A stretch of 64,000 bases of DNA from Patescibacteria group bacterium (GTDB lineage Bacteria; Patescibacteriota; Minisyncoccia; Moranbacterales; UBA9337), in assembly GCA_042569905.1 (NCBI GenBank), contig JBHPHA010000002.1:3756-67755 (forward strand), in the 5' to 3' direction. A program made the translations under genes and the position numbers. Of the stretch, positions 38,027 to 55,486 are shown piece by piece. Below the pieces are notes generated by a model that was not told the origin of the DNA, did not search any database, and saw only the letters and a list, made by a program, of their open reading frames with translations. The stretch's first letter is position 1. Each line of letters starts with the position of its first letter.

Positions 38027-38098
38027 CCCCCTTGTCATTCCGGAAAACATATTTTTCAAAATAAGATACGAATTTTAGAAAAATAGTTTATCCGGAAT
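38027..38098 (+). repeat. TTGTCATYC-terminus hairpin element, type A, copy 1
   Basis: cccccttgtcattccggaaaacatatttttc...gaaaaatagtttatccggaat; arms attccgga/tccggaat and aaacatatttttc/gaaaaatagttt pair. Confidence 0.75.
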
Positions 38099-38122
38099 CT
38101 ACGCCAACAAAAGCCACATGAG

Positions 38123-38167
38123 TTAAGTTAAAATATTTTCAAGTTGTTGTTCTGATTGATATTTCAT
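38123..38167 (-). pseudogene. hsdR 5'-end remnant (MKYQSEQQLENILT*), third copy
   Basis: 38/40 nt identical to the genuine hsdR start (43575-43614); begins 6 nt after the rhuM stop. Confidence 0.8.
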
Positions 38168-38173
38168 ATTATT

Positions 38174-39193
38174 TTAGTTTTTCAAATATTTCTTAACCTC
38201 TCGATCAAAATCAGATTCATACACTCCATCTTGAATAGGTCGATATTTCTCAAATTCACTTTCAGCAAAAGACTTTGCTATTTCCGCAGTTACTTTTCCA
38301 GGACTATTCAAGACTTCTTCATCATTAAATTTCAAAAAAACATCCAGTTTTTCAGACCAGTCATTCATCGACATTGGAATGCCTTTTTCTGCTTGATTTT
38401 CAGCATAATCCAAATACATTACCACAAACCTATTCAAATCCTTAATTTCTTTTTGAATAAGATAATTTTTCGCAACTGAAACATCAGACTTGAGAATCTT
38501 TCCATCTGGAGCTTTTTTCCATATTGAAAGCCCCATGCTTTCTTTTTTATGATCAGCCCGACTCACGATCAACTCCGCTGCGGTTTTCCCATGAATCGCA
38601 TAATGAAGCTTGTTTTGCACAGTTGCAAAAAATTCCTTAGTCGTGAATGAATCCATATCATAATCAACAGCTGTTGCGTATATGTCAGTGATTTGTTGAT
38701 AAAAATTTCTCTCACTAGATCGAATATCGCGAATCTCTAAGATCAAATCATTGAAATACTGCTTACTCAAATATGCTCCATTTTTCAATCTCACATCATC
38801 CAAAACATATCCACGAATCGCAAAGTCTTTCAAAATCTCAATTGCCCATCTTCTGAAGTCCGTTGCTCTCCTAGAGTTAATTCGAAAACCAACAGAAATG
38901 ATCGCTTCTAGATTATAATGCTTAGTATCATACTTCTTACCATCTTTGGCAGTTATTAGGAAATTCCTAATAACTAAATCTTTCTCAATTTCTCCTGTTT
39001 CAAAAATATTCTTCAAATGCTCGTTAATTGTCGGAATCTTCACATCAAAAAGCTTAGCGATCAACTTTTGAGTCAGCCAAACATTTTCATCTTCAACACG
39101 AACCTCAATCCCACCTTCTCCCGATTGAGAGGTGAACATTAAAAATTCCGCTGTGCTGTTCCTGATTTTTAACTTTTTATTTTCTCTTTTCAT
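38174..39193 (-). CDS. rhuM: RhuM family virulence/defence-island protein
   Basis: IEVRVEDENVWLTQKLIAKLFDV..INEHLKNIFETGEI..YNLEAIISVGFRINSRRATDFRRWA matches my memory of the RhuM family. Confidence 0.85.
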   Translation of the reverse strand: MKRENKKLKIRNSTAEFLMFTSQSGEGGIEVRVEDENVWLTQKLIAKLFDVKIPTINEHLKNIFETGEIEKDLVIRNFLITAKDGKKYDTKHYNLEAIISVGFRINSRRATDFRRWAIEILKDFAIRGYVLDDVRLKNGAYLSKQYFNDLILEIRDIRSSERNFYQQITDIYATAVDYDMDSFTTKEFFATVQNKLHYAIHGKTAAELIVSRADHKKESMGLSIWKKAPDGKILKSDVSVAKNYLIQKEIKDLNRFVVMYLDYAENQAEKGIPMSMNDWSEKLDVFLKFNDEEVLNSPGKVTAEIAKSFAESEFEKYRPIQDGVYESDFDREVKKYLKN

Positions 39194-39257
39194 ATTTCAA
39201 AAATTTTTCTATCTTATAGGGATAGTATATCACTAAAAACATCACTTCGCAAAAAAC

Positions 39258-39312
39258 TGTCATCTCAAGTGAAACGAAACGAGGGACGAGCGGAGTGAAG
39301 TCGAGAAATCTC
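39258..39312 (+). repeat. TGTCATCTC hairpin element, type B, copy 1
   Basis: tgtcatctcaagtgaaacgaaacgagggacgagcggagtgaagtcgagaaatctc; inverted relative at 52089-52143. Confidence 0.7.
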
Positions 39313-39350
39313 ACCCAAACAAAAAACATAAACTAAAGATTTTCAACACG

Positions 39351-39424
39351 CCCCCAGTTGTCATCCTGGAAAGTATATTTTTCCAAACGAGGTACGAGTT
39401 TGAGAAAAATAACTTATCCGGGAT
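39351..39424 (+). repeat. TTGTCATYC-terminus hairpin element, type A, copy 2
   Basis: cccccagttgtcatcctggaaagtatatttttcc...gagaaaaataacttatccgggat. Confidence 0.75.
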
Positions 39425-39425
39425 C

Positions 39426-39496
39426 CATCCTTAATATAACCTCAAGTAACATTTATTCACCGCAACCGATCAAAAACAGATCCAGTCCAAAAATCA
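39426..39496 (+). repeat. 71-nt direct repeat D, copy 1
   Basis: 68/71 identical to 39783-39853 (my count). Confidence 0.8.
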
Positions 39497-39553
39497 ATTT
39501 CAAAAAGGTAACTGACCTTTTTTATCCACCTTATTCCAGTTTACAAGCATATA

Positions 39554-39609
39554 CTGGAATATAGGTTTTCTTATTCTAATATCTGGAATATGGGTTTTCT
39601 TATTCTGAT
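39554..39609 (+). repeat. two tandem 29-nt units (ctggaatatRggttttcttattctRat)
   Basis: Read directly; only two units. Confidence 0.7.
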
Positions 39610-39722
39610 TTTATTTATTTTGCTAGAATATGAAATAAAGACACTCATAGAAATCTACACTTCGATTTCTGAAATGATACTATCAATTTCTGAAGTTTTT
39701 TTATCTAGAAGTTTCATTATTT

Positions 39723-39759
39723 CCTCCTCCCTTTTTTAAAAGGGAGGACCGAGGAGAGG
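39723..39759. repeat. GC-rich hairpin repeat, family C, copy 2
   Basis: cctcctcccttttttaaaagggaggaccgaggagagg. Confidence 0.6.
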
Positions 39760-39782
39760 TTTCTTCTTCCCTACTCCATTGT

Positions 39783-39853
39783 CATCCTTAACATAACCTC
39801 AAATAACATTTACTCACCGCAACCGATCAAAAACAGATCCAGTCCAAAAATCA
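39783..39853 (+). repeat. 71-nt direct repeat D, copy 2 (preceded by TTGT, completing a TTGTCATCC terminus)
   Basis: ccattgtcatccttaacataacctcaaataacatttactcaccgcaaccgatcaaaaacagatccagtccaaaaatca. Confidence 0.8.
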
Positions 39854-39858
39854 CCCAA

Positions 39859-40803
39859 CTACTTCTTAAACTCCTTAAGATATCTCCCAAAAACCTTTTG
39901 CATTTTTTCAGACACTGTTTTTATCTCCTCAAAATATTCTTCATACTTATTCTCAGTATCTATATTAAAATCAAAAGAAGTTCCAATTAAAGAACCTTTT
40001 GACTCAGGATATTCATCCCAAATAAGATCAAAATCAAATTTCCTATCAATCTCTTCCCTACTTTCCTCCAGCTTGTAATAGGTGTCTTTATTTGTAACAT
40101 ATAAATCCACCTTCATCAGATTATGATGAGTGTTCATTTTTATAGCTATTCGTGCCTTCGAAGTTCCTATTCCTACTTGATAGTAAGCTGTCGCAGTTGT
40201 TCCAGGTTTACTCAATTTTAAAATCGTCTTCTTTCCATTGCAATATTCGACAAAACGATTAAAAAAGTCTATTTGCTGCAAAGCTAATTTTGACGGCTCC
40301 CCAGATCGAGAAACCTTCTTGATTGCCTTTGCCCAATTGTTTGGCTTAGATACAATATCAAATTTTGGAGCAGGATCTGAATCCCCGATTTTCCACAACT
40401 CAATTTTAATCAAAAAGAAATTAATCTTCTCATCAGTATGCTCATTCAGCCAATCCACGGCCTGCCTATGCTCCTCCCTACAATCCTTTGCAATCCAAAC
40501 CATAACCTCCGCATCATGACCTGAAGCATAAGTTATGAGTTTTCCAAGATGATCATGATTAGTCACCTCCAATTGATTCTCGATTATGATTTTTCTTCCA
40601 GCCATTTCATCTTCCGCCAAAATATCAACACTAAAATTACCCGAATTCGCCTCAGTTTCAATTAGTTTTATTTCTATTCCGATCTCAATACCCAAGAAAC
40701 TTAAATTATCCTCCTTAGCCAACCACGTTGTGAAATCATAAGCTTCATGATTCCAAACCTCACGCAATTCAACATTTTCCAATGTTCCTAGTTTTGTAGA
40801 CAT
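39859..40803 (-). CDS. DUF4268-like protein with N-terminal PD-(D/E)XK-like nuclease motif
   Basis: DILAED..IIIENQLEVTNHDHLGKLITYASG motif; commonly found beside Type I R-M genes; starts 9 nt after the hsdR stop. Confidence 0.65.
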   Translation of the reverse strand: MSTKLGTLENVELREVWNHEAYDFTTWLAKEDNLSFLGIEIGIEIKLIETEANSGNFSVDILAEDEMAGRKIIIENQLEVTNHDHLGKLITYASGHDAEVMVWIAKDCREEHRQAVDWLNEHTDEKINFFLIKIELWKIGDSDPAPKFDIVSKPNNWAKAIKKVSRSGEPSKLALQQIDFFNRFVEYCNGKKTILKLSKPGTTATAYYQVGIGTSKARIAIKMNTHHNLMKVDLYVTNKDTYYKLEESREEIDRKFDFDLIWDEYPESKGSLIGTSFDFNIDTENKYEEYFEEIKTVSEKMQKVFGRYLKEFKK

Positions 40804-40812
40804 AGTTTTTTA

Positions 40813-43614
40813 TTATTTATTCTCCCATTCAAAAATATCAATAATATTATCAATGGCATTTTTTACACGATCAATTATACTTTGCCTTTCCAATATTCCT
40901 GATCCTCCTCGTGAATCAATAATTTTTTGACCTCGAGGCAATTTTTGAGTGTAGATATATTCACTGATCAAATCTTCAAATTTATCTAGAGGAATATTTT
41001 CTTCTTCTGCAATGTTTCTCAAAAAATCAGAACGTTCATTTTCCCAAAATTCACCAAATACTTTTTCAACATCATCAGACTCATCAATTCTAGGCAAATT
41101 TTCTTCAATAAACTTTCGGATCAAATCTTTCTTCTTACGAAGCCTTGCGTCGCGATCAAAAATATTTAGAATATCTTCAATCTTTCTCTCCTTAACTGAA
41201 TTAGAAGTAACACCCTTTAATCCTGCAATAAGCTGAATGATATAATCAAAATTAATGGAAACTGTAACCGTTAACTCTACTTCAAAATCAATTTGATCCA
41301 AAATAGACTCAGTCTGACCGCTATCCTTTCTATCATGATGAATATCCAAATATTTACTTTGATAGTCATAGAACTCCTGCTCAGAAATTCCCAGATCAGA
41401 AAAAGAAAATTCAGCAAAAGTTTCAAGCGATGCCTTGGCACGCAAAAGATCACGAAACGTTTTCACAAATTCAGCCTTTTCCTCTTCTCCAGCCAACGCA
41501 TCCACAGACTCAACAGTTGGAACTTTTTCACGTAGCTCAATCAACTTACCCTCAAAGTCCTTTTTCTGCTCCTCATATGGTCTTTTAAAAACAATTTCTT
41601 TTGCATTTTCATCACCATAAAGAGCCAGTGACTTGTCGGTCGCATCTTTCAAATTCCTAAAAGAAATAATATTCCCATGAGGCTTGTCAGAATTCAAAAG
41701 CCTATTTGTCCTTGAGTAAGCTTGAATCAATCCATGATAGCGCAAATTCTTATCGACATACAGAGTGTTTAATCTAGGACTATCAAAACCAGTCAAAAAC
41801 ATATTCACAACCAAAACAAGATCAACTTCCTTATCTTTAATTCTTTTTTGCAGATCTTTGTAATACTCATAGAAAGTATTAGTTGAAAAATTAGTCGCAT
41901 GTTCCTTATTATAATCTGAAATACAGTCCTCCAAAAAATCCCTTGAATGTTTGTTTATCACGTCACCTTCATCAACAAAAACATCACTGTCGAGTATATC
42001 AGAATTATCCTCTTCATTAGCTTGATAGGTGAAAATTGTCGCTATCTTAAATTTCTCAGATTTCTTTTCGCTTATCAGCTTATAATATTTTTTCAAAACA
42101 TCAATATTTGAAACTGCAAACAAAGCATTAAATTTTCCGTCCTTGGTTTTTCTTTTCCAATCCGCCAAAACATAATCTGAGATTTTATTCAATCGATCAT
42201 CACTTTCCAAAACTTCTCTTGTGTCCACTCCCTCAACCAAAGTCTCAGCAAAGATGTCCGCATCCAGTGTGTCAGGATATTTCTGCTTATACCTCCCAAC
42301 ATATTCCACAGCAAAGCCAAGTACATTATTATCAGAGATTGCATGCGTGATGATATACTTATGCAAACAATCACCAAACACATCAGCAGTTGTCACTCCT
42401 CCAACATTATTCTCAGCAAAAATGGGTGTCCCTGTGAAACCAAAAAGTTGCGCTTTTTTGAAAAAGCTTTTGATCCGAGCGTGAGTTTGCCCAAACTGAC
42501 TCCTGTGACACTCATCAAAAATGATCACGACTTTTTCATTCGCCAAATTTTCAATCTTTTTCAAATATGACTCTCTTCCAATAGCAATATCCAGTTTCTG
42601 AATCGTAGTCACAATTAACTTCCTTTTTCCATCTTTCAATTGTGAAACAAGATTGCGAGTGTTTTCGGTTCCGTCCACTGACCCATCAGAGAAAGAATTG
42701 AATTCCTTGGTAGTTTGAATGTCCAAATCCTTTCTGTCCACAACGAAAATAACTTTCTTGATTTCCGGCATTCTTGAGAGGACCTGACTGGCTTTGAAAG
42801 AAGTCAAAGTCTTTCCTGATCCAGTTGTGTGCCAAATGTAGCCATTTTTTTCCGACTCATTCACTCGCTTTTCAATTTTTTGACAAGCGTAATATTGATA
42901 TGGTCGGAGCACCATTGGGATTCTCAGTGACTCAGCTAAAACAATATACTCCGCAATCATTTCACTGACCGTACATTTTGCCAAAAATGCCTCTGCAAAT
43001 TCACTCAGCTGAGTAATTTTTTTGTTGTCCTCATCAGTCCAATAGAAAGTTTGCTCAAAAGATTGCTTTGGATTATTTGAAAAATATTTTGTGTTGACCC
43101 CGTTTGAAATCACAAAAATCTGGACATATTCAAAAAGCGTTCCAGAAAAAGAATGCTTGTGGTATCTCTGAATCTGATTAAAAGCCTCTTTCATTTCCAC
43201 TCCTCGCCTCTTGAGCTCAATTTGAACCAAGGGTAAGCCATTGATGAGAAGTGTCACGTCATAGCGATTTTCATATCTCCCTGTTTGAGTAACTTGAGTC
43301 GCCACTTGATATTCATTTTTGCACCACTGATCCATGTTGAAAAAACGAACATAGAGAGTGCTTTCGTCATCACGCTTGAGAACAAATCGATCCCTCAATG
43401 TTTTTGCTTTTTCAAATCTGTCACCCTTGTTCAAATGATTCAAAATTCTCGAAAATTCAGTTTCAGAAAATTTTGTCTGATTGAATTTTTCAAGTTGTGA
43501 CCGAAGATTCTCAACCAAAGCTCTCTCATCTTCGATTTTCACGCTCAAAAAACCCAATCTATTCAATTGTTCAATTAAAGTATTTTCAAGTTGTTGTTCT
43601 GATTGATGTTTCAT
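40813..43614 (-). CDS. hsdR: Type I restriction enzyme R subunit
   Basis: 933 aa; N-terminal nuclease region (RYDVTLLINGLPLVQIELKRRG), SF2 helicase motifs (TGSGKT, DECHRSQ). Confidence 0.95.
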   Translation of the reverse strand: MKHQSEQQLENTLIEQLNRLGFLSVKIEDERALVENLRSQLEKFNQTKFSETEFSRILNHLNKGDRFEKAKTLRDRFVLKRDDESTLYVRFFNMDQWCKNEYQVATQVTQTGRYENRYDVTLLINGLPLVQIELKRRGVEMKEAFNQIQRYHKHSFSGTLFEYVQIFVISNGVNTKYFSNNPKQSFEQTFYWTDEDNKKITQLSEFAEAFLAKCTVSEMIAEYIVLAESLRIPMVLRPYQYYACQKIEKRVNESEKNGYIWHTTGSGKTLTSFKASQVLSRMPEIKKVIFVVDRKDLDIQTTKEFNSFSDGSVDGTENTRNLVSQLKDGKRKLIVTTIQKLDIAIGRESYLKKIENLANEKVVIIFDECHRSQFGQTHARIKSFFKKAQLFGFTGTPIFAENNVGGVTTADVFGDCLHKYIITHAISDNNVLGFAVEYVGRYKQKYPDTLDADIFAETLVEGVDTREVLESDDRLNKISDYVLADWKRKTKDGKFNALFAVSNIDVLKKYYKLISEKKSEKFKIATIFTYQANEEDNSDILDSDVFVDEGDVINKHSRDFLEDCISDYNKEHATNFSTNTFYEYYKDLQKRIKDKEVDLVLVVNMFLTGFDSPRLNTLYVDKNLRYHGLIQAYSRTNRLLNSDKPHGNIISFRNLKDATDKSLALYGDENAKEIVFKRPYEEQKKDFEGKLIELREKVPTVESVDALAGEEEKAEFVKTFRDLLRAKASLETFAEFSFSDLGISEQEFYDYQSKYLDIHHDRKDSGQTESILDQIDFEVELTVTVSINFDYIIQLIAGLKGVTSNSVKERKIEDILNIFDRDARLRKKKDLIRKFIEENLPRIDESDDVEKVFGEFWENERSDFLRNIAEEENIPLDKFEDLISEYIYTQKLPRGQKIIDSRGGSGILERQSIIDRVKNAIDNIIDIFEWENK

Positions 43615-43642
43615 GTTATTTATCTTTTAAATTTGAACTATT

Positions 43643-44254
43643 TTAACCCCCTTTCAATACGCTTTTAATTTTTCTCATATACTCATCACCACAACTTTCC
43701 TCCAAGCTACCCAGAATCATTTGTGCCGACTTATATGGACTACTTGGAAGAGAATCTATGTACTTATATTTTTCATACTTCTTATCCCAAGTTTCACTTA
43801 TCAACTCATGAAGAATTAAGAATAGTTTGAAAATAATAGAATCTGCTGTCTCTGAAGAAAATTTATGATAAGAAGATTTTTTTTCTGGAAAACGAATGTG
43901 ATATGTGAGCGGACCAATTTCGTGTTCAATCATTCGTACCGCGGCGTGTCTGATGTTTCCGTTTTTGTGCAAAAGTAAATTCAGTAACCAATGAAACATA
44001 AAATCAGGCTGATCCTCATTATCATGCAAAAAATACATCACTGAAACAGCTACGACGAAATTTTCTTGCCTCCAATCTTCTTGAATTTTTGAATATTTTT
44101 CCGGAGCACTATTGATGATTTTTTTGATACTTTTAAATTCATTTCTTCCACTGCGAGAGCTATGCAAAAAATTCCGCACCTCGCGTGCAGCTTTGCGACT
44201 CTCCTCCCTATTTGCATTCAAAATTGTGTCAAATATCTCAATAAATGTTTTCAT
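43643..44254 (-). CDS. hypothetical HEAT/ARM-repeat-like protein (cargo between hsdR 5' copies)
   Basis: ATG 44254 (track GTG 44317 is less likely); all-helical; NGNIRHAAVRMIEHEIG resembles a HEAT repeat. Confidence 0.55.
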   Translation of the reverse strand: MKTFIEIFDTILNANREESRKAAREVRNFLHSSRSGRNEFKSIKKIINSAPEKYSKIQEDWRQENFVVAVSVMYFLHDNEDQPDFMFHWLLNLLLHKNGNIRHAAVRMIEHEIGPLTYHIRFPEKKSSYHKFSSETADSIIFKLFLILHELISETWDKKYEKYKYIDSLPSSPYKSAQMILGSLEESCGDEYMRKIKSVLKGG

Positions 44255-44350
44255 GGTTTTTACTTTAAAACAGTTTTTTATCCTTATTTTTTTCCAATCT
44301 CTCAGAGAAAAAGACACCCGACTTTTTTCAACTCATCACTCCCCTTCTTG

Positions 44351-44416
44351 TCATCCCGAGCGATTCAATTGACCAATTAACGTATTTTCAAGTTGTTGTT
44401 CTGATTGATGCTTCAT
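44351..44416 (-). pseudogene. hsdR 5'-end remnant (MKHQSEQQLENTLIGQLNRSG*), second copy
   Basis: 44363-44416 is 50/54 identical to 43561-43614; homology ends where the TTGTCATCCCGAGCG terminus (44341-44362) begins. Confidence 0.85.
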
Positions 44417-44425
44417 AATTGATTA

Positions 44426-45007
44426 CTAAATAATATCATTAATTTTCAATAAATATTTAACACATAAAGAATATTCTTTGTCATACCATGCTTCCTTCTT
44501 TAAATCATCAAGTGCATTATTTTTTAATGTTGAATTAGATGACCTAAAGCACTCATTAATCAACTTATTAATTACATCAAGTTTTTCTTGTCTTTTTTCA
44601 ACTAATTCAAGTCTATTTAAGTCAATATCTAAAATTGTTAGTTCTCCTCGCTCTGATCCTCTTTTTTGCTTCAACATAGAGCCAAGTGCAATAATGTGCC
44701 CACCCGGATCTTCTTCATAAGGATTTATATATGGGGTATTATTATCAAATTTATCACGTTTCTTATTATTACACTTCCAACAAGCAACACCTAAATTATC
44801 CCAACTGTATTCTAATGCAGGAAAATTAATCTTTGGCTTAATATGCTCAATATCCCCAGGATAAGTATGCGAAATCATACTCTCACAATACATACATTTA
44901 CCAAAACTTGCACCTACTAATACAGATTTATTCTTGGGATTTTTATAATCCTTACTCAGAGCTCTTGTATTTGGACATCTTGGTCTATCAATCTTTATCA
45001 TTATCAA
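44426..45007 (-). CDS. HNH endonuclease, PtuB-like (TIGR02646-type)
   Basis: CMYCES..H..GDIEHIKPK..WDNLGVACWKCNNKK HNH motif; 20-nt overlap with the upstream ATPase. Confidence 0.75.
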   Translation of the reverse strand: MIMIKIDRPRCPNTRALSKDYKNPKNKSVLVGASFGKCMYCESMISHTYPGDIEHIKPKINFPALEYSWDNLGVACWKCNNKKRDKFDNNTPYINPYEEDPGGHIIALGSMLKQKRGSERGELTILDIDLNRLELVEKRQEKLDVINKLINECFRSSNSTLKNNALDDLKKEAWYDKEYSLCVKYLLKINDII

Positions 45008-46244
45008 TTTTCATTAACTTATAAACAGCTTCTGGCATAAGCCTTCCTAGTCCTATTTCATCTAACTCTCTTCTCATATTACTAAATTCACCCTTTGTCA
45101 TACGTTTCGAAGAATATTTTTCCACAATACCCATCAACTTATCCTCTGCCCAAATTGGCATAGTAAAAGACACTCCTAAAACCTCAGTTAAAATCTCAGT
45201 TGCTGTTTTAGCTTGATTAATTAAATCAAGCTCCTGACTTACAATCTTACCATTATCATTATATTTAAAAACAAAAACATTTGAGTCCTGAACAGATCCT
45301 ACAACTAAAGGACTGTGTGTTGAAACTACAAAACGAGCCTCCGGAAAAGAATCCAGTAGATCTGGCAATATCCTTCTTTGCATTGTTGGATGTAAGTGAT
45401 TCTCAATCTCATCAATAATAACAGTAAACTCTGTTTTTTCTACAGTAGAATACATATAAATTTGCCACGCTATATCAATAAGGGCACTCACTCCTCCCGA
45501 CGCTTGCTCTAAAACAAATTCATCTTTTCCTTTATTACAGATAAAAACAATTTCTCTTTCTCTTATTTCAAAATCCTCAAAACCAAGTGTTTTAGGCAAA
45601 ATCTTCCTCAGCACATTTTTAAATCCCTCGTAAAATTTAACTTGCTCACTATCTCTCGCATTAATTTCTTTTCCACTATCATCAACTAGTCTATATCCCT
45701 GATATGCCCACCCAATTAAGGTGTTCTTCATCAAAAAACTACTCGGCTGATTATTCCCCCCAAGGTATCTATCTTTTGTAGCATTGGAAACCTCCTGAAA
45801 TGCAGATCTCTTATCTTTTTTACCAAAAGGAATATTATTCACTGGATGATAACGAAAAACTGACCTATGTGATGGAATAAAAAAACATTGTACGCCCTGT
45901 TGTCCCAATATTTGCAATTGATATTGTGCGGAATTTTGATCAGGAACTCGCAAGCTAGCTTTTTGATCATTGTCATATAAAATATATCCAATTTTACTAC
46001 TATCATTCTTATTCTCTCCATTAAAAAGTCTTGTTAAAAACGAAATAACGCCCGTCTTTTTGTCTTTTTTGGGTGTAGAACACGACTGCACCTCCCATCC
46101 AAAATGTCTTGCTAGAATATTTCCTAATATAGTAGTCTTACCACTCCCATTTGCACCCGTTAAAATAGTTAGTCTATCATGAAATTTAATCTCAACATCT
46201 TGAAATTGTTGCCATTCTTTAATTGTTAATTCCTTAAAATTCAT
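44988..46244 (-). CDS. AAA_15/21-type ATPase, PtuA-like
   Basis: Walker A GANGSGKTT; Walker B VIIDEIENHLHP; STHSP motif; ATG 46244 preferred over the track TTG 46256. Confidence 0.75.
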   Translation of the reverse strand: MNFKELTIKEWQQFQDVEIKFHDRLTILTGANGSGKTTILGNILARHFGWEVQSCSTPKKDKKTGVISFLTRLFNGENKNDSSKIGYILYDNDQKASLRVPDQNSAQYQLQILGQQGVQCFFIPSHRSVFRYHPVNNIPFGKKDKRSAFQEVSNATKDRYLGGNNQPSSFLMKNTLIGWAYQGYRLVDDSGKEINARDSEQVKFYEGFKNVLRKILPKTLGFEDFEIREREIVFICNKGKDEFVLEQASGGVSALIDIAWQIYMYSTVEKTEFTVIIDEIENHLHPTMQRRILPDLLDSFPEARFVVSTHSPLVVGSVQDSNVFVFKYNDNGKIVSQELDLINQAKTATEILTEVLGVSFTMPIWAEDKLMGIVEKYSSKRMTKGEFSNMRRELDEIGLGRLMPEAVYKLMKIDNDKD

Positions 46245-46248
46245 AGCT

Positions 46249-48045: not shown

Positions 48046-48568
48046 ATTTTCCGCTTATCAAATCAATCAACATCTTCAGATTCTTAATTTTTTTAGCTTG
48101 TTTGGCTAACAATCTTTTTGGAAATATTTTCCCATAATTTCTTTTGTTTTTTCTTTTCTTTCCATCCAAATATTTCTTTTCAAACATCTTCTTGCAATCA
48201 CAGCTACGCTGTTGTGAATAATCTTTGCCTTCTAAAATTTCAAGCAATAAAGACTCGAGACACTGATTGTTTTCAACACACACGACACCTCTCGATTGTC
48301 TTTCTGCTTTCAATTCTCGGTCAACTCCACTATCAACATCAAACACACAAACCATAATATCAGCAGGAATCTGCCTTACGATATTTCTCAAAATGCAATC
48401 AGCACCTTTCCCGTGGTTTTCCTTAACTATCGTATGCACACCGCTATCCTCTGAAAAAAGCATCTTTAGATAATTCAAAAATGCCTTCTCATGCGCACCT
48501 TCACAGTACAATAACAATGTCCTCTTAGCTGCTCTTATTTTCTTTTTGTTTGGATTTGATTGGGACAT
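48032..48568 (-). CDS. RloB / AbiLii-like (Toprim-like) protein
   Basis: LLLYCEGAHEKAFLNYL and VCVFDVDSG match RloB family motifs; 14-nt overlap with hsdS. Confidence 0.65.
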   Translation of the reverse strand: MSQSNPNKKKIRAAKRTLLLYCEGAHEKAFLNYLKMLFSEDSGVHTIVKENHGKGADCILRNIVRQIPADIMVCVFDVDSGVDRELKAERQSRGVVCVENNQCLESLLLEILEGKDYSQQRSCDCKKMFEKKYLDGKKRKNKRNYGKIFPKRLLAKQAKKIKNLKMLIDLISGKYDEK

Positions 48569-48573
48569 GAAAA

Positions 48574-49761
48574 TTACAAGTCAAATTCAGGAATAGCTCC
48601 ATAGGCTCCTGATAAATACTTAGCATAATAATTATCATCAGAACGAACATTTTCCATCTCATTCATCCTCCAAATTTCACTTTCTCCCTTTTCATTCTTT
48701 TCCGTAAAGGCGATTTGATACTTGTCCAACAAATTCAAAAGGTGTGGGCTATGGGCAGAAAAAATTAACTGTGCATTATTAGGGTTAGTTTCTTTGGAAA
48801 AAAACATTTCCAAAAGCGCCTCACTCATCATTGGATGCAAATCAGTATCAAATTCATCAAGCACCGCCACACCGCCAAATTCCAGTGTTTGCAAGATATT
48901 TTTCAAAATAGAAAAGAGTTTTTTTGTTCCAGATGATTCAAAACGAAAATCCAAATCATACTCTCCGTAATGGGAACCACGCAAATCAAAAGCTACTCCT
49001 CCGTTATCATCTTCTTTTTTTGTAATATTAATTGCTTCCAACCCAATGTCAAATTTTTGCAAGAGCTTATCTGCCTTTTTTTTGATTTTGGGATTATTCT
49101 CAAAAAAATTAGCGGCACTTACAAGATTACGAGATTCATTGTTCATCTTTCCCCAAGCAGTAACGTTCACATCGACATTTTTCCAAAAATCGAATATCTC
49201 CATACTTTCCAGGTGTTTGTCACGAATAGCAGTTGCAAGTACGGAGGCATTTTCCCTCAATCGATCATGAAAGTTTTTTCCCAGATTAAATTTATCATTC
49301 CAAATGTAATTATTTTTTTCTCCTTTTTTCCAGCTACGCTCGAAAAGTGTTGAAAATTTAACTTTTCCATGCGACTTTTTTTTCAGCTTTTCATTGAGTA
49401 TTTTATGTGTTGTAAATGATACAAAATAAATATACAAACTTTTTCCAATACTAAATTCCACCGATATTTCTACTGGGTCACTTTTTTTGTTGGTGAACTT
49501 AAAAGGAACAACAGGCATCTTTGCATCAGGTTTCTCTGTGTATGCATACACAACAAACCATTGAAGAAAAGAAATTGCCTTAAGAGCGTTTGTCTTTCCG
49601 GATGCATTGTGTCCAAAAATAGACATCACCTTTGAAAGATTCCCTCCTGTTGCATCCGCGAAATACTTTTCTGTTTTCGGAGCTTTTTCATTCACTTTAA
49701 ATGATATAATTCCCTCATCCTTGAATGAGAAAAAGTTTTTAAATTTAACTTCGTGTATCAT
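48574..49761 (-). CDS. AAA_15/21 ATPase, RloA / AbiLi-like
   Basis: Walker A GHNASGKTN; Walker B VAVLDEFDTDLHP; SAHSP. Confidence 0.75.
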   Translation of the reverse strand: MIHEVKFKNFFSFKDEGIISFKVNEKAPKTEKYFADATGGNLSKVMSIFGHNASGKTNALKAISFLQWFVVYAYTEKPDAKMPVVPFKFTNKKSDPVEISVEFSIGKSLYIYFVSFTTHKILNEKLKKKSHGKVKFSTLFERSWKKGEKNNYIWNDKFNLGKNFHDRLRENASVLATAIRDKHLESMEIFDFWKNVDVNVTAWGKMNNESRNLVSAANFFENNPKIKKKADKLLQKFDIGLEAINITKKEDDNGGVAFDLRGSHYGEYDLDFRFESSGTKKLFSILKNILQTLEFGGVAVLDEFDTDLHPMMSEALLEMFFSKETNPNNAQLIFSAHSPHLLNLLDKYQIAFTEKNEKGESEIWRMNEMENVRSDDNYYAKYLSGAYGAIPEFDL

Positions 49762-50002
49762 AATTTTGAATTACTCAATTTAATGCTACTGATATCTTAT
49801 CAAAATGCACGCTAAAAGTCAAGTTTCAACAAGAATTTGTTTGTTTAGCTTTTTAAAGTCTACTTTTCTCTAAATTAACTCAGAGGCTTTCATGTATATA
49901 CAACTCCACTAAAAACCCATTCCTCTAATATATTCAATTATACTAGAGACACTAAATACTCACACTTCTATCTTTTCAACATCACCCCCTGACTTCCTAC
50001 CC

Positions 50003-51580
50003 TCAAAAGGGCTTATCAATTTTTAACTCATCGCAAAACTTTGCGATTTTTTCTTGAATTCCAACTTCATCTTTCTGAAGATTTTTGAGATTTTTTGAAA
50101 CTTCCTCAATGTCAATTTCCTCCTCTTCTTCAAAAGTGTCCACATATCTTGGGATGTTGAGATTGTACTCATTCTCAATGATTTCTTCCATTGTTGCTCG
50201 GTGGGAATATTTTTCAATCTCTTTTCTGTCTTTGTAAGTCTCGAAAATCTTTTCAATGTTTTGATTAGTCAACCTGTTTTGATTTTTTTCTTTTTCAAAT
50301 CCCTTCGAAGCATCAATGAATAGAATATCGTCATCATTTTTTCTGCACTTTTTGAAAACCAAAACAGTAGCTGGAATTGATGTTCCATAGAAAAGATTTG
50401 ACGGAAGTCCAATCACAGCATCGAGGTAGTTTTGTTTTTCGATTATATACTTCCTGATTTGTCCTTCTGCTCCTGATCGAAACAATGCGCCATGAGGAAG
50501 AACAATTGCCATTGTCCCATTGTCTGCCAAGTGATAGAGCATGTGCGTCACGAAAGCATAATCCGCTGCACCCTTTGGAGCCAGTCTTCCATATTGAGAA
50601 AAACGATCATCCTGGGCAAGTTGTGGATCACTGTCACTTTTCCATTTTGCAGAAAAAGGAGGATTGGCAACAATTGCCTCCGCCTTAAGATCCTCATGCA
50701 TGTCCTCCACCAGAGTGTCTCCGTGGCGAATGTCAAAGTGATCAAAATGAACTCCGTGAAGAATCATATTCATTCTTGCTAGATTGTAGGTTGTTGGATT
50801 CAGTTCTTGTCCATAATAGTCTGAAACTTCAGTGTAATCGTTGAGACGCAAAAGCAAGGATCCCGATCCGCAAGATGGATCATAAACGCTACGAACTCTT
50901 TTTTTGTCTTCGGAAACTATTTGAGCCATTAGTCTTGAAATTTGTTGAGGAGTGTAGAACTCTCCACCTTTTTTCCCTGCGCCTGCCGCAAACTCACCAA
51001 TCAAATATTCATATGCATCCCCAAGCAAGTCACTCTTTGAATCTTCAAGCTTGAAATCAATCCCACTCAGATGAGTGAGCACTTCGATGACAACTTCATT
51101 TTTTTGATTCTCTCGAGCGCCTAGTTTTGTGGAAGTCAGATCAACATCGTCGAACAATCCCTTGAAATCATCTTCACTATCAGTTCCCATCGATGTTTGC
51201 TCGATTGTGTTGAGAACATTTCGAAGATCTTCAATGATGAAATTTTCTTCACCTTTAATTTCACCTTTTCCTTTTTTAACAAGATATGAAAAAAGTTCAG
51301 AAGGCTTCAAGAAAAATCCAAGTTCATCAACACAAGCCACTTGAACCTCTTTCAAAATCTTACTACCTTCTTTAGTTTTCTCTTTTATTTCAAAAAATTT
51401 GAATTTTTCATCACACAAAAGCTTCTCGTCCACAAAATATTCCAATTTTTCAGATAGATATTTGTAGAAAATGAAACCAAGAATATAGTTTTTGTACTCA
51501 TCAGCATTCATCTTTCCTCGAAGCAAATCCGCCACATTCCACAGTTGTTTCTCCAAAAGCTTTTTTTGTTCTGTTGTCAT
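50003..51580 (-). CDS. hsdM: Type I restriction-modification N6-adenine methyltransferase M subunit
   Basis: HsdM N-terminus LWNVADLLRG; SAM motif DPSCGSGS; catalytic NPPF. Confidence 0.95.
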   Translation of the reverse strand: MTTEQKKLLEKQLWNVADLLRGKMNADEYKNYILGFIFYKYLSEKLEYFVDEKLLCDEKFKFFEIKEKTKEGSKILKEVQVACVDELGFFLKPSELFSYLVKKGKGEIKGEENFIIEDLRNVLNTIEQTSMGTDSEDDFKGLFDDVDLTSTKLGARENQKNEVVIEVLTHLSGIDFKLEDSKSDLLGDAYEYLIGEFAAGAGKKGGEFYTPQQISRLMAQIVSEDKKRVRSVYDPSCGSGSLLLRLNDYTEVSDYYGQELNPTTYNLARMNMILHGVHFDHFDIRHGDTLVEDMHEDLKAEAIVANPPFSAKWKSDSDPQLAQDDRFSQYGRLAPKGAADYAFVTHMLYHLADNGTMAIVLPHGALFRSGAEGQIRKYIIEKQNYLDAVIGLPSNLFYGTSIPATVLVFKKCRKNDDDILFIDASKGFEKEKNQNRLTNQNIEKIFETYKDRKEIEKYSHRATMEEIIENEYNLNIPRYVDTFEEEEEIDIEEVSKNLKNLQKDEVGIQEKIAKFCDELKIDKPF

Positions 51581-51760
51581 ATTTTTATCCCTTTTTCAGT
51601 ATTAAAATTAAAGTAATTCACAAAATAACACTAGTTAATAATAGCACTATTGAACGCTTAAATACAATCATTGCTATTCTTCACGTATTTTAACACTTCT
51701 ACTTTTTCCAAAAATTCATCTAGTTATTTTGATATTCTCTTTTAAAAATTGGTTCCTACT

Positions 51761-52000
51761 CTACCACTTCTTACTATAATTCGTTTTTACATGTTCGTTG
51801 ATGAAAGTGCTTAGTCCTTCTCCTTTTTGTGCGAGTTCTTTCATTGCTTCAACGTTACTGTCTCCAGCGCTTCCGTAAGTGTATTTGTAGTTTGTGTAGC
51901 TGAAAACTGGTGATGGATTGAATTGCACATCAATGAACTCATCTCCTATCTCGTATGAGATGACATTAGAGTCTCCGCCTAGGTTCTTGTAGTTTTCCAT
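51761..52000 (-). CDS. KTSC domain-like small protein
   Basis: ISYEIGDEFIDVQF..YKYTY..AMKELAQKGEGLSTFINEHVKTNY fits my memory of the KTSC pattern. Confidence 0.5.
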   Translation of the reverse strand: MENYKNLGGDSNVISYEIGDEFIDVQFNPSPVFSYTNYKYTYGSAGDSNVEAMKELAQKGEGLSTFINEHVKTNYSKKW

Positions 52001-52088
52001 ATTATTATTTTAAAAAAATTAAATGTATCTTTAAATGTACCTTTTTTTATTATTAAGTTCATCGAGTATTTGTGACTATATTTAGGTT

Positions 52089-52186
52089 GAGATCTCTCGA
52101 CTTCACTTCACTCGTTCCTCGTTTCGCTCCGCTCGAGATGACAAGCTACGGGGGTGACCGTGTGGGAAGATGACAAGCTACGGGGG
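52089..52186 (-). repeat. type B hairpin element (inverted) plus two tandem GATGACAAGCTACGGGGG termini
   Basis: gagatctctcgacttcacttcactcgttcctcgtttcgctccgctcgagatgacaagctacggggg..gatgacaagctacggggg. Confidence 0.75.
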
Positions 52187-52294
52187 ATAATAAGATGCGG
52201 GAACTAAAAAAACACTACCCTTCTTTGATAGTGTTTTTACCTTAGCATAAGTGATATGAAATAAAGATGAAGAAGTTATGAAGTTTTTGTGAAA

Positions 52295-52332
52295 TAAAAA
52301 AAGCCTGATCAAGTTTTACCTGATAGGCTTTT
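52295..52332 (-). terminator. intrinsic terminator
   Basis: aaaaaaagcctgatcaagttttacctgataggctttt. Confidence 0.65.
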
Positions 52333-52358
52333 AATTTCCCTTATTTTACTAAATGTAA

Positions 52359-52499
52359 CTATCTTCGAGTTCCATTCAAAGTTTCCAATGCCTCATCCCA
52401 TCTCTTTCCCATATAGTTAATGAGAAGAACGATTCTCTGATTTATTTCCTGCTGGACTTGAAGAGTGCGTTCATCAAATATTGCAGACACCCAGTTCAT
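52359..52499 (-). CDS. possible 46-aa ORF, not in track
   Basis: MNWVSAIFDERTLQVQQEINQRIVLLINYMGKRWDEALETLNGTRR; sits between the stop of 52517..52975 and its terminator; weak. Confidence 0.25.
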   Translation of the reverse strand: MNWVSAIFDERTLQVQQEINQRIVLLINYMGKRWDEALETLNGTRR

Positions 52500-52516
52500 T
52501 CTTTGACCGAAAGAAG

Positions 52517-52975
52517 TTAATCGATTACCTCTTCATCACTTGATGGTGAAAAAAGTCGCTTCGCGCTTTTGTCTTCATCTGTTGGAACCCGACACAGAAT
52601 CCCATTGAAAATAGCTTCAAATTGCATCATGGGGACTTTCATTTCCTGTGCTAATTGCATTGCAACTTCGGCATGCTCTTTAGAACCGGGTTCTGAAATC
52701 ATCAGACTCCAACACATTACTATATGCCAGTAATCAATATCATCAAAACGTTCCAGGAAGGCTATCGCTCTCCAAAGTGCAATTGTGTCATATCCACCAT
52801 CCTCCAGAACCACCGGAGAAAAACAACTATGATTAGAGTCAATCATTAGGCTCAATACATTACCACTACTATCATCCACAGTTTCTCCCACAAAAAAAAC
52901 GATGCTATCAACTTTCTCGCCTCTTATTTTTCTTGTTTTTAACTCCTTTCCAATCCACGCAATCCTTACTGACAT
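52517..52975 (-). CDS. hypothetical protein, family Q
   Basis: GAGGAG RBS; N-terminus GKELKTRKIRGEKVDSIVFFVG parallels GKKLENKKVNGKNVRTFQFFIG of 58269..59027. Confidence 0.55.
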   Translation of the reverse strand: MSVRIAWIGKELKTRKIRGEKVDSIVFFVGETVDDSSGNVLSLMIDSNHSCFSPVVLEDGGYDTIALWRAIAFLERFDDIDYWHIVMCWSLMISEPGSKEHAEVAMQLAQEMKVPMMQFEAIFNGILCRVPTDEDKSAKRLFSPSSDEEVID

Positions 52976-53208
52976 CTCTATTCTCCTCTTGTGATGATTT
53001 ATGTGTTTTTAATGTTTTTTAAAAAAACTAACCTGATTACTAATTGTAGCAGAAAAAGTCTCTATTGTCAACCAGAAAAGAACTATTTCTCTCAGTTCTT
53101 TTAAAATTTAAGTCTATTTATTTCTCAATCTTTTCAACAATTCTCGATAACCTGCAATTGCTTTCTCCATAAGCTGGTATGTTTTTTTATTTTTATTTTT
53201 TTGGCAAC

Positions 53209-53243
53209 AAAAAAACGGGGAGTTCATTTTTGAACTCTCCGTT
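53209..53243 (-). terminator. terminator family T-b, copy 1
   Basis: aaaaaacggggagttcatttttgaactctccgtt. Confidence 0.7.
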
Positions 53244-53271
53244 ATACTGCTTCTAAGGAGTAGGTGATGCC

Positions 53272-53862
53272 TTATGTATCAGATTTTCTCCACCTTTTAA
53301 AAAACTTTATAAATTTCTCCTTCATTGTATGCTTAAGGGCTGATTCTTTTGCTGCCTGTAAAGCACGAAATTTCGCATTTAAAACCCTCGTCTTAATATA
53401 GCTCGCATCCAACGAGCTAATCCCGCAAGGTCCATCAGTATTCTCATTCCCCCTCCAAAGTAGCAATATGTATTTCACAAACTCTTTTGCTACTTTCTTG
53501 GTGTTGGAATCTAATGCAATGTATTTGCCCGTATCGATAGAAAGATCTACAATGAATCCCCTTATTAAATTCATTTCAGTATCTTCCTTCAATACGATTG
53601 CAGAAACCGCTAAAACAAAATTAGCATCTTTATCTCCTACTCTCTCATCACATTTTCGACACACAAACGGATATGTCTCTCCATACTTGTTCAGCTGCAT
53701 CTCCAATTGATGTGCAGTCCACAGAGGATCATGATCCAAAAATGGAATCGCCAACACCCTTCCACTTGAGACATTTACTAGTTCACCGCAAGAGCGACAA
53801 ATTTGATCATCTTCAGATTGGGAATCCATGTTCTGTATCGCATCTTTAGACTCTATACTCAT
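53272..53862 (-). CDS. hypothetical zinc-ribbon protein
   Basis: ATG 53862 with AAGGGAGA RBS; CRSCGE ... CRKCDE Cys pairs. Confidence 0.55.
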   Translation of the reverse strand: MSIESKDAIQNMDSQSEDDQICRSCGELVNVSSGRVLAIPFLDHDPLWTAHQLEMQLNKYGETYPFVCRKCDERVGDKDANFVLAVSAIVLKEDTEMNLIRGFIVDLSIDTGKYIALDSNTKKVAKEFVKYILLLWRGNENTDGPCGISSLDASYIKTRVLNAKFRALQAAKESALKHTMKEKFIKFFKRWRKSDT

Positions 53863-53968
53863 GATAGTTCTCCCTTTTTTTATTGACATGTTAACGAACA
53901 TTACATATTAGTATAGTTTCAAGTTCTTGTCAATCCAAAACTACGCCACCTATGAAGTTTTTGTGAAA

Positions 53969-54005
53969 TAAAAAAAACGGGGAGTTCATTTTTGAACTCT
54001 CCCGC
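53969..54005 (-). terminator. terminator family T-b, copy 2
   Basis: aaaaaaaacggggagttcatttttgaactctcccgct. Confidence 0.7.
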
Positions 54006-54015
54006 TATACATTCT

Positions 54016-54441
54016 TTACATTCCTGCCATCACCTTCACAAGAAGTAACTGAAGATTATCGTCGCACTCTTTATCCTTAACCAAAAGTCTTTTGAGCTCA
54101 GAAGATGACTCAGTGGTCTCATTTTTCTCCACGATAGCAATCATATCCTTCCTATTCTTTCCGCGATCCATCATTATATTGAGAAGCTCCTCAGTCGCAG
54201 AAATCATCCACGAAGGAGCTTTGACTTCCTCCAGATCACCGGAAAGATATCTCCCCTGCAAACGCAGGAGATACTCTACAAATTCCTTCGCAAAAGAATC
54301 AGCAGCAGTCTCAGAGACATTTTCCGGAAATTCGAACATCTTGATCAAGCCAATTACCTCCTCCTCACCAATCAGGGTCAAACTAGCGCCCTCAAGATCC
54401 TCGGTTACTTGCTTCACAAATCTTTCTTTGGCGTTTTCCAT
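54016..54441 (-). CDS. hypothetical acidic protein
   Basis: 141 aa; GGAGGA RBS. Confidence 0.55.
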   Translation of the reverse strand: MENAKERFVKQVTEDLEGASLTLIGEEEVIGLIKMFEFPENVSETAADSFAKEFVEYLLRLQGRYLSGDLEEVKAPSWMISATEELLNIMMDRGKNRKDMIAIVEKNETTESSSELKRLLVKDKECDDNLQLLLVKVMAGM

Positions 54442-54587
54442 TATTCACTTCCTCCGTTTTATATTGGAATTTTTACCTAACTTCTCTTTTTAAAATATTC
54501 ACATTTTACTTTAAAGAACGATATTATATATTAGCATATTATTGCTGAAATGTCAAGAGGAGGAACCGCCATATTTCAGATAGGCTT

Positions 54588-55175
54588 TTAAGCAATAGTA
54601 CCTGGTTCTTTTTTGTTTTCTTTTTTATTATTGAAGACTTCCCAGTTATTAAAGTGATTAGTTGCGTCGTTTTCCATGTTTCCGAGAAATATCTTTCCTT
54701 CTCTAGGGTAGAATTTCAGTCGATACATGTCAGTAGATTTCATGTACCAGATGTTTTTAAGTTTGATATGCTTATCAATTTCTTTTTTTGTAAATATGAT
54801 GAAATCATTTTCACTTCCATCCTCTGTTAGGACAAAGATGTATATTGGCGTGTACTCTCCATGGAAAGTAACCGCTTCTTTTTTGATGCCTATATTGTAG
54901 AGATAGTTTTCATCACCATTCAAAAAAGCGGTTTTCACTTGAATGAAAAATAGCTTTCCGTTGTTGGTCACTACGACATCATAACCCTCATCAATGTATG
55001 ATTTCATTGCGTTGATTCCTTGAAACATTAACTTTGAAATCACAGCGTGTTCTCCTGCATATCCAATATATTGCATAAAAGCTCTGATGTCTTTCACTTT
55101 TTCAAGGTTTTTGTTTTTTGGTCTGTTGGCTAATTTCAATTCACTAATCGCCAGTTCAGTTTCTTTTGTATTCAT
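54588..55175 (-). CDS. PD-(D/E)XK (Hjc/restriction-endonuclease-like) nuclease family protein
   Basis: AGEHAVISKL..GYDVVV..KLFFIQVKT reproduces the E...D...(E/Q)xK core. Confidence 0.55.
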   Translation of the reverse strand: MNTKETELAISELKLANRPKNKNLEKVKDIRAFMQYIGYAGEHAVISKLMFQGINAMKSYIDEGYDVVVTNNGKLFFIQVKTAFLNGDENYLYNIGIKKEAVTFHGEYTPIYIFVLTEDGSENDFIIFTKKEIDKHIKLKNIWYMKSTDMYRLKFYPREGKIFLGNMENDATNHFNNWEVFNNKKENKKEPGTIA

Positions 55176-55181
55176 AGGTTG

Positions 55182-55349
55182 TTATTTCCAATCCTTAACG
55201 ATTAATTTTCCTCTTTCTTCTGTTACAATAACTTTTTGACCATTTCTCCACTTCAACTTCCTCACAAGCTCAATCGGGAGAGTAATGGAATAACTTGCAC
55301 CCCTCTTTAGAATTTTGCGTACATTTCGCTCTTCTAAAGTTCTTCTCAT
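55182..55349 (-). CDS. AbrB/MazE/SpoVT-family DNA-binding protein (55 aa), not in ORF track
   Basis: Own translation: MRRTLEERNVRKILKRGASYSITLPIELVRKLKWRNGQKVIVTEERGKLIVKDWK; stop lies 6 nt before the nuclease ATG. Confidence 0.65.
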   Translation of the reverse strand: MRRTLEERNVRKILKRGASYSITLPIELVRKLKWRNGQKVIVTEERGKLIVKDWK

Positions 55350-55408
55350 ATTTTTTTATTTTAAAATTTATTATTTATCTTTATCGCCTCAGGTAGTACA
55401 ATGCGTAG

Positions 55409-55486
55409 ATTCCGGATAAGTTAATTTCTTTGAACTCGTACCTCATTCAAGAAATTATACTTTCCGGAATGACAAGCTACGGGGGG
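55409..55486 (-). repeat. TTGTCATYC-terminus hairpin element, type A, copy 3 (inverted)
   Basis: attccggataagttaatttctttgaactcgtacctcattcaagaaattatactttccggaatgacaagctacgggggg. Confidence 0.75.

Follow-up and report, generated by a model that had tools for sequence, protein, structure and literature searches.

A stretch of 64,000 nucleotides from a Patescibacteria group bacterium (Moranbacterales; contig JBHPHA010000002.1, positions 3,756 to 67,755; the window, below) carries a dispersed family of intergenic repeats that open with TGTCAT and, in full copies, close with ATC. The type-1 form of the repeat is a long hairpin whose pairing is maintained by selection. In related genomes it occurs as convergent doublets, present at some sites and missing from others. 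One doublet in the window is split, and a 17.26-kb defense island sits inside its spacer. We infer that the hairpins act as single-stranded DNA, that the foot is recognized by an Ssn-type or analogous nuclease encoded elsewhere in the genome, and that doublets spread between genes and become places where foreign DNA is inserted and later rearranged. We hold this reading, which covers how the hairpins act, which enzyme cuts them and how the island entered, with a probability of roughly 0.6.

The window is a low-GC (~35%) chromosome segment that includes rpoB, rpoC, and uvrA, with nearly all genes on the minus strand. The closest relatives bearing the element are annotated as Candidatus Moranbacteria. 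An earlier note on this DNA had listed copies or termini of a hairpin repeat at several sites, and direct reading and alignment place a copy at, or a few bases from, every one of them.

Type-1 copies form a conserved hairpin

Three full type-1 copies are found: A at 38033-38099 (plus strand), C at 39359-39425 (plus), and G at 55408-55474 (minus). Each has the form TGTC-ATYCCGGAA..., a 25-bp stem, the apical sequence GAGGTACGAG, and ...TATCCGGRAT-C, with an apical region of ~9 to 11 nt. A covariance model built from relatives returns exactly three type-1 matches in the 64 kb (38033-38102 and 39359-39428 on the plus strand, 55405-55474 on the minus strand; 88 to 90 bits, E ~1e-17), and nothing else passes. 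The GTCAT strand of these copies scores 88 to 90 bits, against 21 to 29 bits for the opposite strand. Copy A, of subtype "a" (TGTC-ATTCCGGAAAAC...GTTTATCCGGAAT-C), scores 90.2 bits and folds at -16 kcal/mol (z -5.6). Copy G, of subtype "b", spans 55408-55489 with its 5' flank TCACCCCCCGTAGCT and scores 87.6 bits (-18.2 kcal/mol, z -6.7), while copy C, whose partner hairpin is absent from the window, scores 88.7 bits (z -4.9). Folded as single-stranded DNA, the three range from -15 to -18 kcal/mol with z scores of -4.9 to -6.7, and none of 200 shuffles folds as well.

Folding and covariation, which the earlier note had named as checks, both bear out the type-1 stems. Across 22 aligned low-GC family members, TGTCAT and ATC are invariant, and 16 of the 25 stem pairs show compensatory changes. 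Stem cells are paired in 89.6% of cases, versus 24 to 59% for slid partners, and covariation as high as that observed appears in 0 of 500 shuffles. On the GTCAT strand of this close family, G.T pairs outnumber A.C pairs by 21 to 10. Further, a metagenome scan with the type-1 foot and a free interior lists at least 120 loci (GC 31 to 69%) that share the foot; their interiors vary widely, and the arms stay complementary. Downstream of ATC, 127 independent metagenome copies have Y at +1 (95%), A at +2 (71%), and G or T at +3 (74%). The type-1 pattern has 0 matches in viral contigs.

The defense island lies within the spacer of one doublet

The normal unit in relatives is ~190 bp long and reads TGTCAT-hairpin(a)-ATC, a partly palindromic spacer of ~54 nt, and GAT-hairpin(b)-ATGACA. 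In the loci sampled, the covariance model finds 23 convergent doublets versus 1 divergent. These doublets adjoin rpsI, aspS, manC, glycosyltransferase, and NUDIX genes, and their position beside housekeeping genes indicates ordinary intergenic repeats. When genes up to 2.5 kb from an element are clustered, no gene family recurs, and the clusters are generic ones such as ABC ATPases, histidine kinases, and tRNA synthetases. The elements are thus not specific to the accessory-gene or cargo junctions stressed earlier, since relatives' doublets lie mostly beside housekeeping genes.

In BLAST comparisons, hairpin A and the following 19 nt (38033-38118) match positions 4517-4603 of a related locus, L018, at 82.8% identity, and the 29 nt preceding hairpin G together with the hairpin (55379-55479) match L018 4610-4711 at 84.3%. 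The two segments tile a single L018 doublet (4517-4711), leaving just 6 nt uncovered. The inner flanks of A (38100-38118, plus strand, TACGCCAACAAAAGCCACA) and G (55379-55407, minus strand) are, by BLAST and alignment, remnants of doublet spacer. A with its flank thus corresponds to the left half of a single doublet and G with its flank to the right half, which puts the intervening 17.26 kb (38119-55378) inside a doublet spacer. We considered L018 as an empty allele of the island site and rejected it: its flanking genes are not orthologous to those of the window, which makes it a paralogous doublet.

The split doublet also revises the geometry proposed earlier, in which the copies at 38027 and 52089 bracketed a 14-kb island. 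The inverted bracketing is real, but the pairing was wrong: 38027 pairs with 55409, and 39258 with 52089. The brackets are nested (inverted repeats I1/I3 and I2), with 17.3 kb, not 14 kb, between the outer copies. The earlier note also suggested that the elements take part in cassette capture. This is plausible but unproven; inverted copies bracket the island and one doublet is split by it, but the idea is extrapolated from a single nested example.

Type-2 copies share the ends but not the fold

The inner bracket consists of two type-2 copies, B at 39258-39312 (plus strand, TGTCATCTCAAG...GTCGAGAAATCTC) on the left and F1 at 52089-52143 (minus strand; 52089-52159 with its 5' flank GGTCACCCCCGTAGCT) on the right. 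They are 86% identical over 56 nt, are purine-rich, and both carry the TGTCAT head, the apical sequence AACGAGGNACGAG, and the ATC tail. The inverted repeat I2, formed by the copy B region and 52069-52143, extends over 75 nt at 79% complementarity, so that the likeness runs 20 nt into the inner flanks. As a second convergent pair, B and F1 enclose copy C, the solo flank D described below, the restriction-modification (R-M) genes, Septu, and AbiL. The body of the type-2 copy is not a Watson-Crick palindrome: at most ~5 to 7 terminal pairs (ATCTC/GAGAT) are possible, and the folds have z scores of +1.7 (B) and +2.2 (F1). Of the two types of long imperfect palindrome described earlier, the first thus folds strongly and the second folds no better than shuffles. 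A type-2 pattern search of viral contigs recovers two near-identical contigs (L142 and L143, GC 0.55) with a type-2-like element.

Solo flanks and one hsdR stub break at GTCAT

TGTCAT is present in five full copies and three solo flanks of the window. Upstream of it, this genome has its own flank form, TCACCCCC(GTAGC)TTGTCAT, and a 17-mer, CCCCCGTAGCTTGTCAT, occurs three times, all on the minus strand (52143-52159, 52175-52191, and 55473-55489, belonging to F1, F2, and G). Alignment and pattern search find a weak version of this terminus in the C-run flank of copy A (38021-38032, plus strand, CATCCGCCCCCT). The sites at 39779, 44333, and 52160-52186 do carry the terminus, as previously claimed, but as solo 5' flanks that stop exactly at GTCAT and continue into unrelated sequence, the hairpin being absent. 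Solo flank D (CCTACTCCATTGTCAT, 39770-39785, plus strand) is joined directly to the second copy of a spacer repeat at 39783-39853, as direct reading and alignment show. Here the hairpin is missing precisely between two CATCCT direct repeats, the pattern expected from slipped-strand hairpin deletion. Solo flank E (TCACTCCCCTTCTTGTCAT, 44336-44354, plus strand) breaks right after GTCAT and abuts an hsdR fragment, and F2 (TTATCCCCCGTAGCTTGTCAT, 52170-52191, minus strand) is a tandem partial duplicate upstream of F1.

The spacer repeat at D also follows copy C. There, a doublet-type spacer (39426-39496, plus strand) matches relatives' spacers over ~42 nt and then breaks off; spacer and the next 29 nt make up copy 1 of a 71-nt direct repeat with 96% identity (family D8). 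By BLAST, 39358-39473 matches locus L036 and 39359-39473 matches L041. The 286-nt stretch separating the two spacer-repeat copies holds, at 39557-39610 and 39711-39768, a 27-nt unit (CTGGAATATRGGTTTTCTTATTCTRAT) present twice in tandem and, nearby, a CCTCCC...GGGAGG hairpin.

The window holds three copies of the initial 62 nt of hsdR, 76 to 89% identical (family D3): at the real start (43553-43614) and in two minus-strand fragments, one at the left island edge comprising the start codon and ~45 nt (38106-38167, 76% identical to the real start) and one of 62 nt at 44355-44416 (89%). The earlier observation that hsdR fragments end at elements holds: one breaks exactly after GTCAT, at 44354/44355, and the other at ~38119, in the spacer beside hairpin A. 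A single-gene insert, open reading frame (ORF) ORF224 (43643-44317), lies between the second stub and intact hsdR, and the triplication with ORF224 looks as if recombination at the 5' end of hsdR had inserted the gene. A 70-nt promoter-like block immediately outside copies F and G is duplicated (52224-52293 and 55512-55581, 80% identical, family D10). The same block occurs without a hairpin in L041 (1416-1476), upstream of a homologue of ORF79, and may be a promoter or leader duplicated along with the elements' 5' flank.

The conserved TTGTCATYC of the earlier note is weakly significant by itself (6 observed versus 2.1 expected; 1 of 100 shuffles reaches 6). TCACCCCC occurs 3 times versus 0.87 expected, a count reached in 7 of 100 shuffles, so that the "partial terminus" reported at 49975-49988 after hsdM is indistinguishable from chance; only CATCACCCCC is present there (49980-49989, plus strand), and the site is probably not an element. 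Among metagenome copies, CCCC occurs within 15 nt upstream in 7.1%, compared with 1.7% of control windows, and upstream sequence is not generally conserved. A scan of species-representative genomes with CCCCGTAGCTTGTCATYC gave 12 matches, mostly chance occurrences within coding sequence. Two, in Gallionella (L011) and an Acidobacteriota genome (L012), are genuine hairpins of NTS-like form, preceded by the same 11-mer. Since about one such 11-mer match is expected by chance among millions of repeats, we do not take the 5' flank as universally conserved. As a candidate ribosome-binding site or promoter, the flank was rejected on account of its inconsistent orientation relative to genes.

Elements are gained, lost, and duplicated among relatives

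Empty-site alleles, whose existence the earlier note had left to be seen, were found in two comparisons. Locus L101, syntenic with window positions 1-3700 at ~77% identity, carries a complete doublet at a place that in the window is a plain 51-nt spacer (3532-3583). Conversely, L041 lacks the elements of 52089-52186 between the conserved promoter-like block and the ORF79 homologue. The earlier reading of a single family of dispersed repeats, differing from one related genome to another, is supported.

In unrelated organisms (GC 0.39 to 0.67), the 5' flank and 5' arm (TGTCATCCCGGAA and ~20 nt) are repeated in tandem two to three times before one complete hairpin (L017, L026, L028, L054, L069, L078, L084, L091, L112, L117, and L142 at 621-676). 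Such arrays suggest that the hairpin is a place where duplication or nested insertion happens repeatedly. The F2/F1 layout in the window is the same kind of tandem 5' duplicate as in L142/L143 and many metagenome loci. A shorter version of the repeat is seen in a Parcubacteria locus (L141, 1184-1266 and 9009-9064), where 21-nt hairpins GTC-ATTCCGGGCTTGACCCGGAAT-C are paired with GTC-ATCCTGAACTTGATTCAGGAT-C in convergent doublets ~10 to 30 nt apart.

Gene content of the island and other repeats in the window

Pfam and PADLOC scans identify a defense island at ~38 to 55.5 kb. Within the split doublet lie RhuM (PDC-S05, 38174-39193), DUF4268 (PDC-S11, 39859-40803), the Type I R-M genes hsdR (40813-43614), hsdS (46900-48045), and hsdM (50003-51580), Septu PtuA/PtuB (44426-46256), AbiLi/AbiLii (48032-49761), and a MazE-like gene (55182-55349) paired with a weak PD-(D/E)XK protein, as well as several ORFs without an assigned family. 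Just outside, a 76-amino-acid ORF (36660-36890) matches the first half of a NUDIX domain only and is probably a truncated gene; it has no detectable orthology to the NUDIX gene beside the L018 doublet.

Other short repeats recur through the window. A ~55-nt family on the minus strand (TTGACAAAA-N17-TAATATTA and a conserved downstream stretch; families D1, D2, and D4) occurs at 18309-18363, 27778-27830, 31579-31631, 33266-33320, 35457-35511, 53885-53939, and 57078-57132, and looks like a common promoter module before many minus-strand genes. Three families of near-identical terminator-like hairpins are reused behind different genes: D6 (26464-26514, 27885-27935, and 31085-31135), D9 (31032-31069, 37626-37663, and 57678-57715), and D7 (53196-53240 and 53958-54002). 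Some of these are called by the terminator scan.

An NTS-like foot and a proposed mechanism

The NTS repeat of Neisseria (CGTCATTCCCGCGMAVGCGGGAATCYRG) is a hairpin with the foot GTC-ATTCC...GGAAT-C-YRG, which the 94-amino-acid GIY-YIG protein SsnA binds and cuts only as single-stranded DNA; RNA is not bound (Chenal et al. 2025, PMC11893778). Binding depends critically on the C that directly follows the palindrome, and cleavage, which falls a few bases upstream of the motif, on the three bases that precede the palindrome (PMC11893778). The type-1 foot is identical to that of NTS over GTCATTCC...GGAATC, and both the binding-key C and the cleavage-key 5' bases are invariant in the present family. 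The proposed link to an Ssn-type nuclease is an extrapolation from this shared foot.

In the mechanism that we favor, the hairpin would extrude when DNA becomes single-stranded during replication, repair, or transformation. The invariant foot would then be bound, and the strand nicked just 5' of GTCAT, by an Ssn (GIY-YIG)-type enzyme or an analogue, a sequence- and structure-specific enzyme acting from elsewhere in the genome. The doublets, which are gained and lost between genes, would spread through intergenic DNA. As dispersed patches of homology and fragile palindromes, the repeats would also serve as breakpoints for insertion or exchange of foreign DNA, and the solo termini and hsdR stubs would be scars of later deletion and recombination at the GTCAT boundary. 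The excess of G.T over A.C pairs on the GTCAT strand and the tandem duplicates of the 5' flank are at most indirect hints of such binding and cutting as single strands.

Several observations weigh against this mechanism. No GIY-YIG gene is found in the window by regular expression or phmmer. The only one in 709 kb of element-bearing loci encodes an 83-amino-acid, single-domain protein in L099 (6847-7097, 194 nt from a doublet); its nearest solved relatives are UPF0213 proteins, which it resembles more than Ssn. Five further independent genomic contexts sampled from its clade show no consistent link to hairpins: no such hairpin lies near the sister genes in L133-L139 (one shared context), L140, L144, or L147, L141 has only its short 21-nt doublets nearby, and L146 has just weak GTCTT-headed candidates (7775-7815 and 11777-11817) and no clear GTCAT hairpin. 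The published SRM pattern, HGTCWYN(0-2)YYVSBRHN(0-5)WNVSBRGN(0-2)RNCYNB, recovers two classical Gallionella copies in L011 but has 0 matches in the window, L018, L041, L099, L101, or L141, where it misses the short hairpins too. SRM elements are 20 to 50 nt overall with loops of 0 to 5 nt, compared with the 25-bp stems and larger apical regions here. The type-2 copies do not fold by Watson-Crick pairing, and the island within a doublet is a single case. Finally, the mechanism does not explain the conserved 5' flank TCACCCCCGTAGCT, which is local to this genome, nor why D, E, and F2 end so abruptly at GTCAT, why 5' halves are arrayed in tandem, or why the hsdR start is present in triplicate.

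In L099 (6780-7173), the GIY-YIG gene lies between a partial 5' copy of tRNA-Gln (GGGTCGTCGCCAAGTGG...) and an intact tRNA-Gln (7101-7173), and appears to have been inserted into or beside the tRNA gene, duplicating its 5' part. In L146 (10001-20231), on a contig from the candidate phyla radiation (CPR), a sister gene stands beside a different defense block, made up of Type III R-M, Cas4-like PD-(D/E)XK, NucS-like, and RhuM genes.

Alternative explanations

A more ambitious version of the mechanism would have defense islands in CPR bacteria use convergent doublets again and again as landing pads, or travel as cargo elements that end in the hairpins. A trans-acting single-strand nuclease would nick one strand at the first hairpin and the opposite strand at the second, in each case 5' of GTCAT, the spacer would capture foreign DNA, and repeated rounds would give nested brackets. 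We regard this as unlikely. We think it similarly improbable that the island is the cargo of a hairpin-ended transposon whose enzyme is encoded elsewhere, the ~190-bp doublets being its internally deleted miniature forms. The outward-facing TGTCAT ends would then be terminal inverted repeats, in keeping with the 23-to-1 excess of convergent pairs, and the presence or absence of whole doublets between relatives, the nested brackets of two repeat types, and the inverted similarity running ~15 to 30 nt outside GTCAT in this genome would all fit. Against it, no direct repeat flanks copies A, G, or B, CATCCT at copy C is spacer consensus, and no target-site duplication was found at any copy (the filled and empty L101/window pair is too diverged to show one). 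Pfam and PADLOC scans detect no transposase or recombinase among the proteins of the 17-kb cargo, no neighboring gene family recurs, and no second cargo-bearing pair was found in ~0.46 Mb of related loci. On their inner sides, A and G adjoin sequence that matches ordinary doublet spacer, as insertion into a preexisting doublet predicts.

The hairpins could instead work as RNA, as transcript-stabilizing or -terminating stem-loops or small RNAs between genes, given that they are strong, conserved, covarying, and without exception intergenic; F and G, just downstream of the promoter-like D10 block, would sit in 5' leaders. This we consider quite improbable, because only F and G run in the sense of the minus-strand genes while A, B, C, D, and E run antisense, and convergent doublets, which show both strands equally, fit poorly with a sense-specific signal. 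The terminator scan calls no intrinsic terminator at any copy and no T-run follows the hairpins, while Rfam, at gathering and permissive thresholds, gives only spurious miRNA-like matches below threshold. The asymmetric foot GTC...C also matches a motif whose described nuclease binds the DNA form but not the RNA form (PMC11893778). Least credible of all, and very improbable in our view, is an integron-like system in which attC-like sites assemble defense genes one by one. Imperfect palindromes at gene junctions, solo termini broken exactly at GTCAT, and an hsdR 5' end duplicated on either side of the single-gene insert ORF224 would suit it, but the scanned window proteins include no integron integrase or any tyrosine recombinase domain, and the copies lack RYYYAAC...GTTRRRY cores. 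Further, their orientation is not uniform, most island genes have no flanking site of their own, and relatives carry the same repeats as tight doublets beside housekeeping genes.

If the NTS-like reading is correct, the Ssn-type partnership of repeat and nuclease reaches the CPR in a long-stem form that is invisible to the published pattern, and the spread of this repeat class, with at least 120 metagenome loci matched, has been undercounted. Should the landing-pad extension hold as well, it would amount to a previously undescribed, integrase-free route of defense-gene acquisition. The split doublet is a concrete case of a hairpin repeat marking the exact insertion point of an integrase-less, multisystem defense island, and bears on how such islands are assembled in reduced genomes without classical mobile-element machinery. 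Even if the NTS-like reading is wrong, the analysis still describes a family of intergenic repeats that is abundant and structured in CPR bacteria.

Comparison with known repeat systems

The earlier note called the elements similar to miniature inverted-repeat transposable elements (MITEs). Presence or absence at sites and inverted brackets agree with this, but the lack of target-site duplication and transposase does not, and the closest described systems are NTS/dRS3-type single-strand hairpin repeats and REPIN-like doublets rather than classical MITEs or integron attC sites. As in MITEs such as Correia elements, the doublets are small (~190 bp), noncoding, and polymorphic for presence, with inverted ends. 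They differ in that neither a target-site duplication nor a related autonomous transposon was found and in that each end is a self-folding hairpin whose pairing is under selection.

REP, BIME, and REPIN sequences are likewise repeated hairpins whose 5' motif is conserved and oriented, and for which an inverted doublet is the predominant or mobile unit; they also move without target-site duplication and act as single-stranded DNA. Their head is GTAG, whereas here GTCAT adjoins the stem, and just 3 of 8 copies have GTAG, 10 nt farther upstream. In phmmer searches with IS200 TnpA and RAYT-like queries, which were approximate and of limited sensitivity, neither the window nor 709 kb of loci carrying the element gave a Y1/RAYT match. 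Neisserial intergenic mosaic elements (NIMEs) are alike in having two small palindromes around a 50- to 150-nt spacer, and arrays of dRS3-RS-dRS3/NIME flank variable genes and have been proposed as insertion sites for array-flanked acquired genes (Bentley et al. 2007, PMC1797815). NIME palindromes are small and lie in long arrays, whereas the present hairpins are long and form strictly convergent single doublets, one of which contains a whole 17-kb defense island.

The closest likeness is to NTS and SRM elements. Their head, (H)GTCWY directly before the palindrome, corresponds to TGTCAT here, and their tail, C followed by Y-R-G, matches the bases downstream of the 127 metagenome copies. They too are dispersed through many phyla, mostly intergenic, and clustered around particular genes, with both the sequence and the structure of the stem conserved. 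In that class the genome encodes a single-domain GIY-YIG nuclease of the Ssn clade (cd10448), often with the motif on its flanks, whereas no cd10448-type nuclease could be tied to the present repeats. The stem base differs, being CCCGCG in NTS and CCGGAA here, as does the host, which is a CPR bacterium. We therefore place the element in the NTS/SRM-dRS3 class, as a CPR variant that has a long stem and forms doublets.

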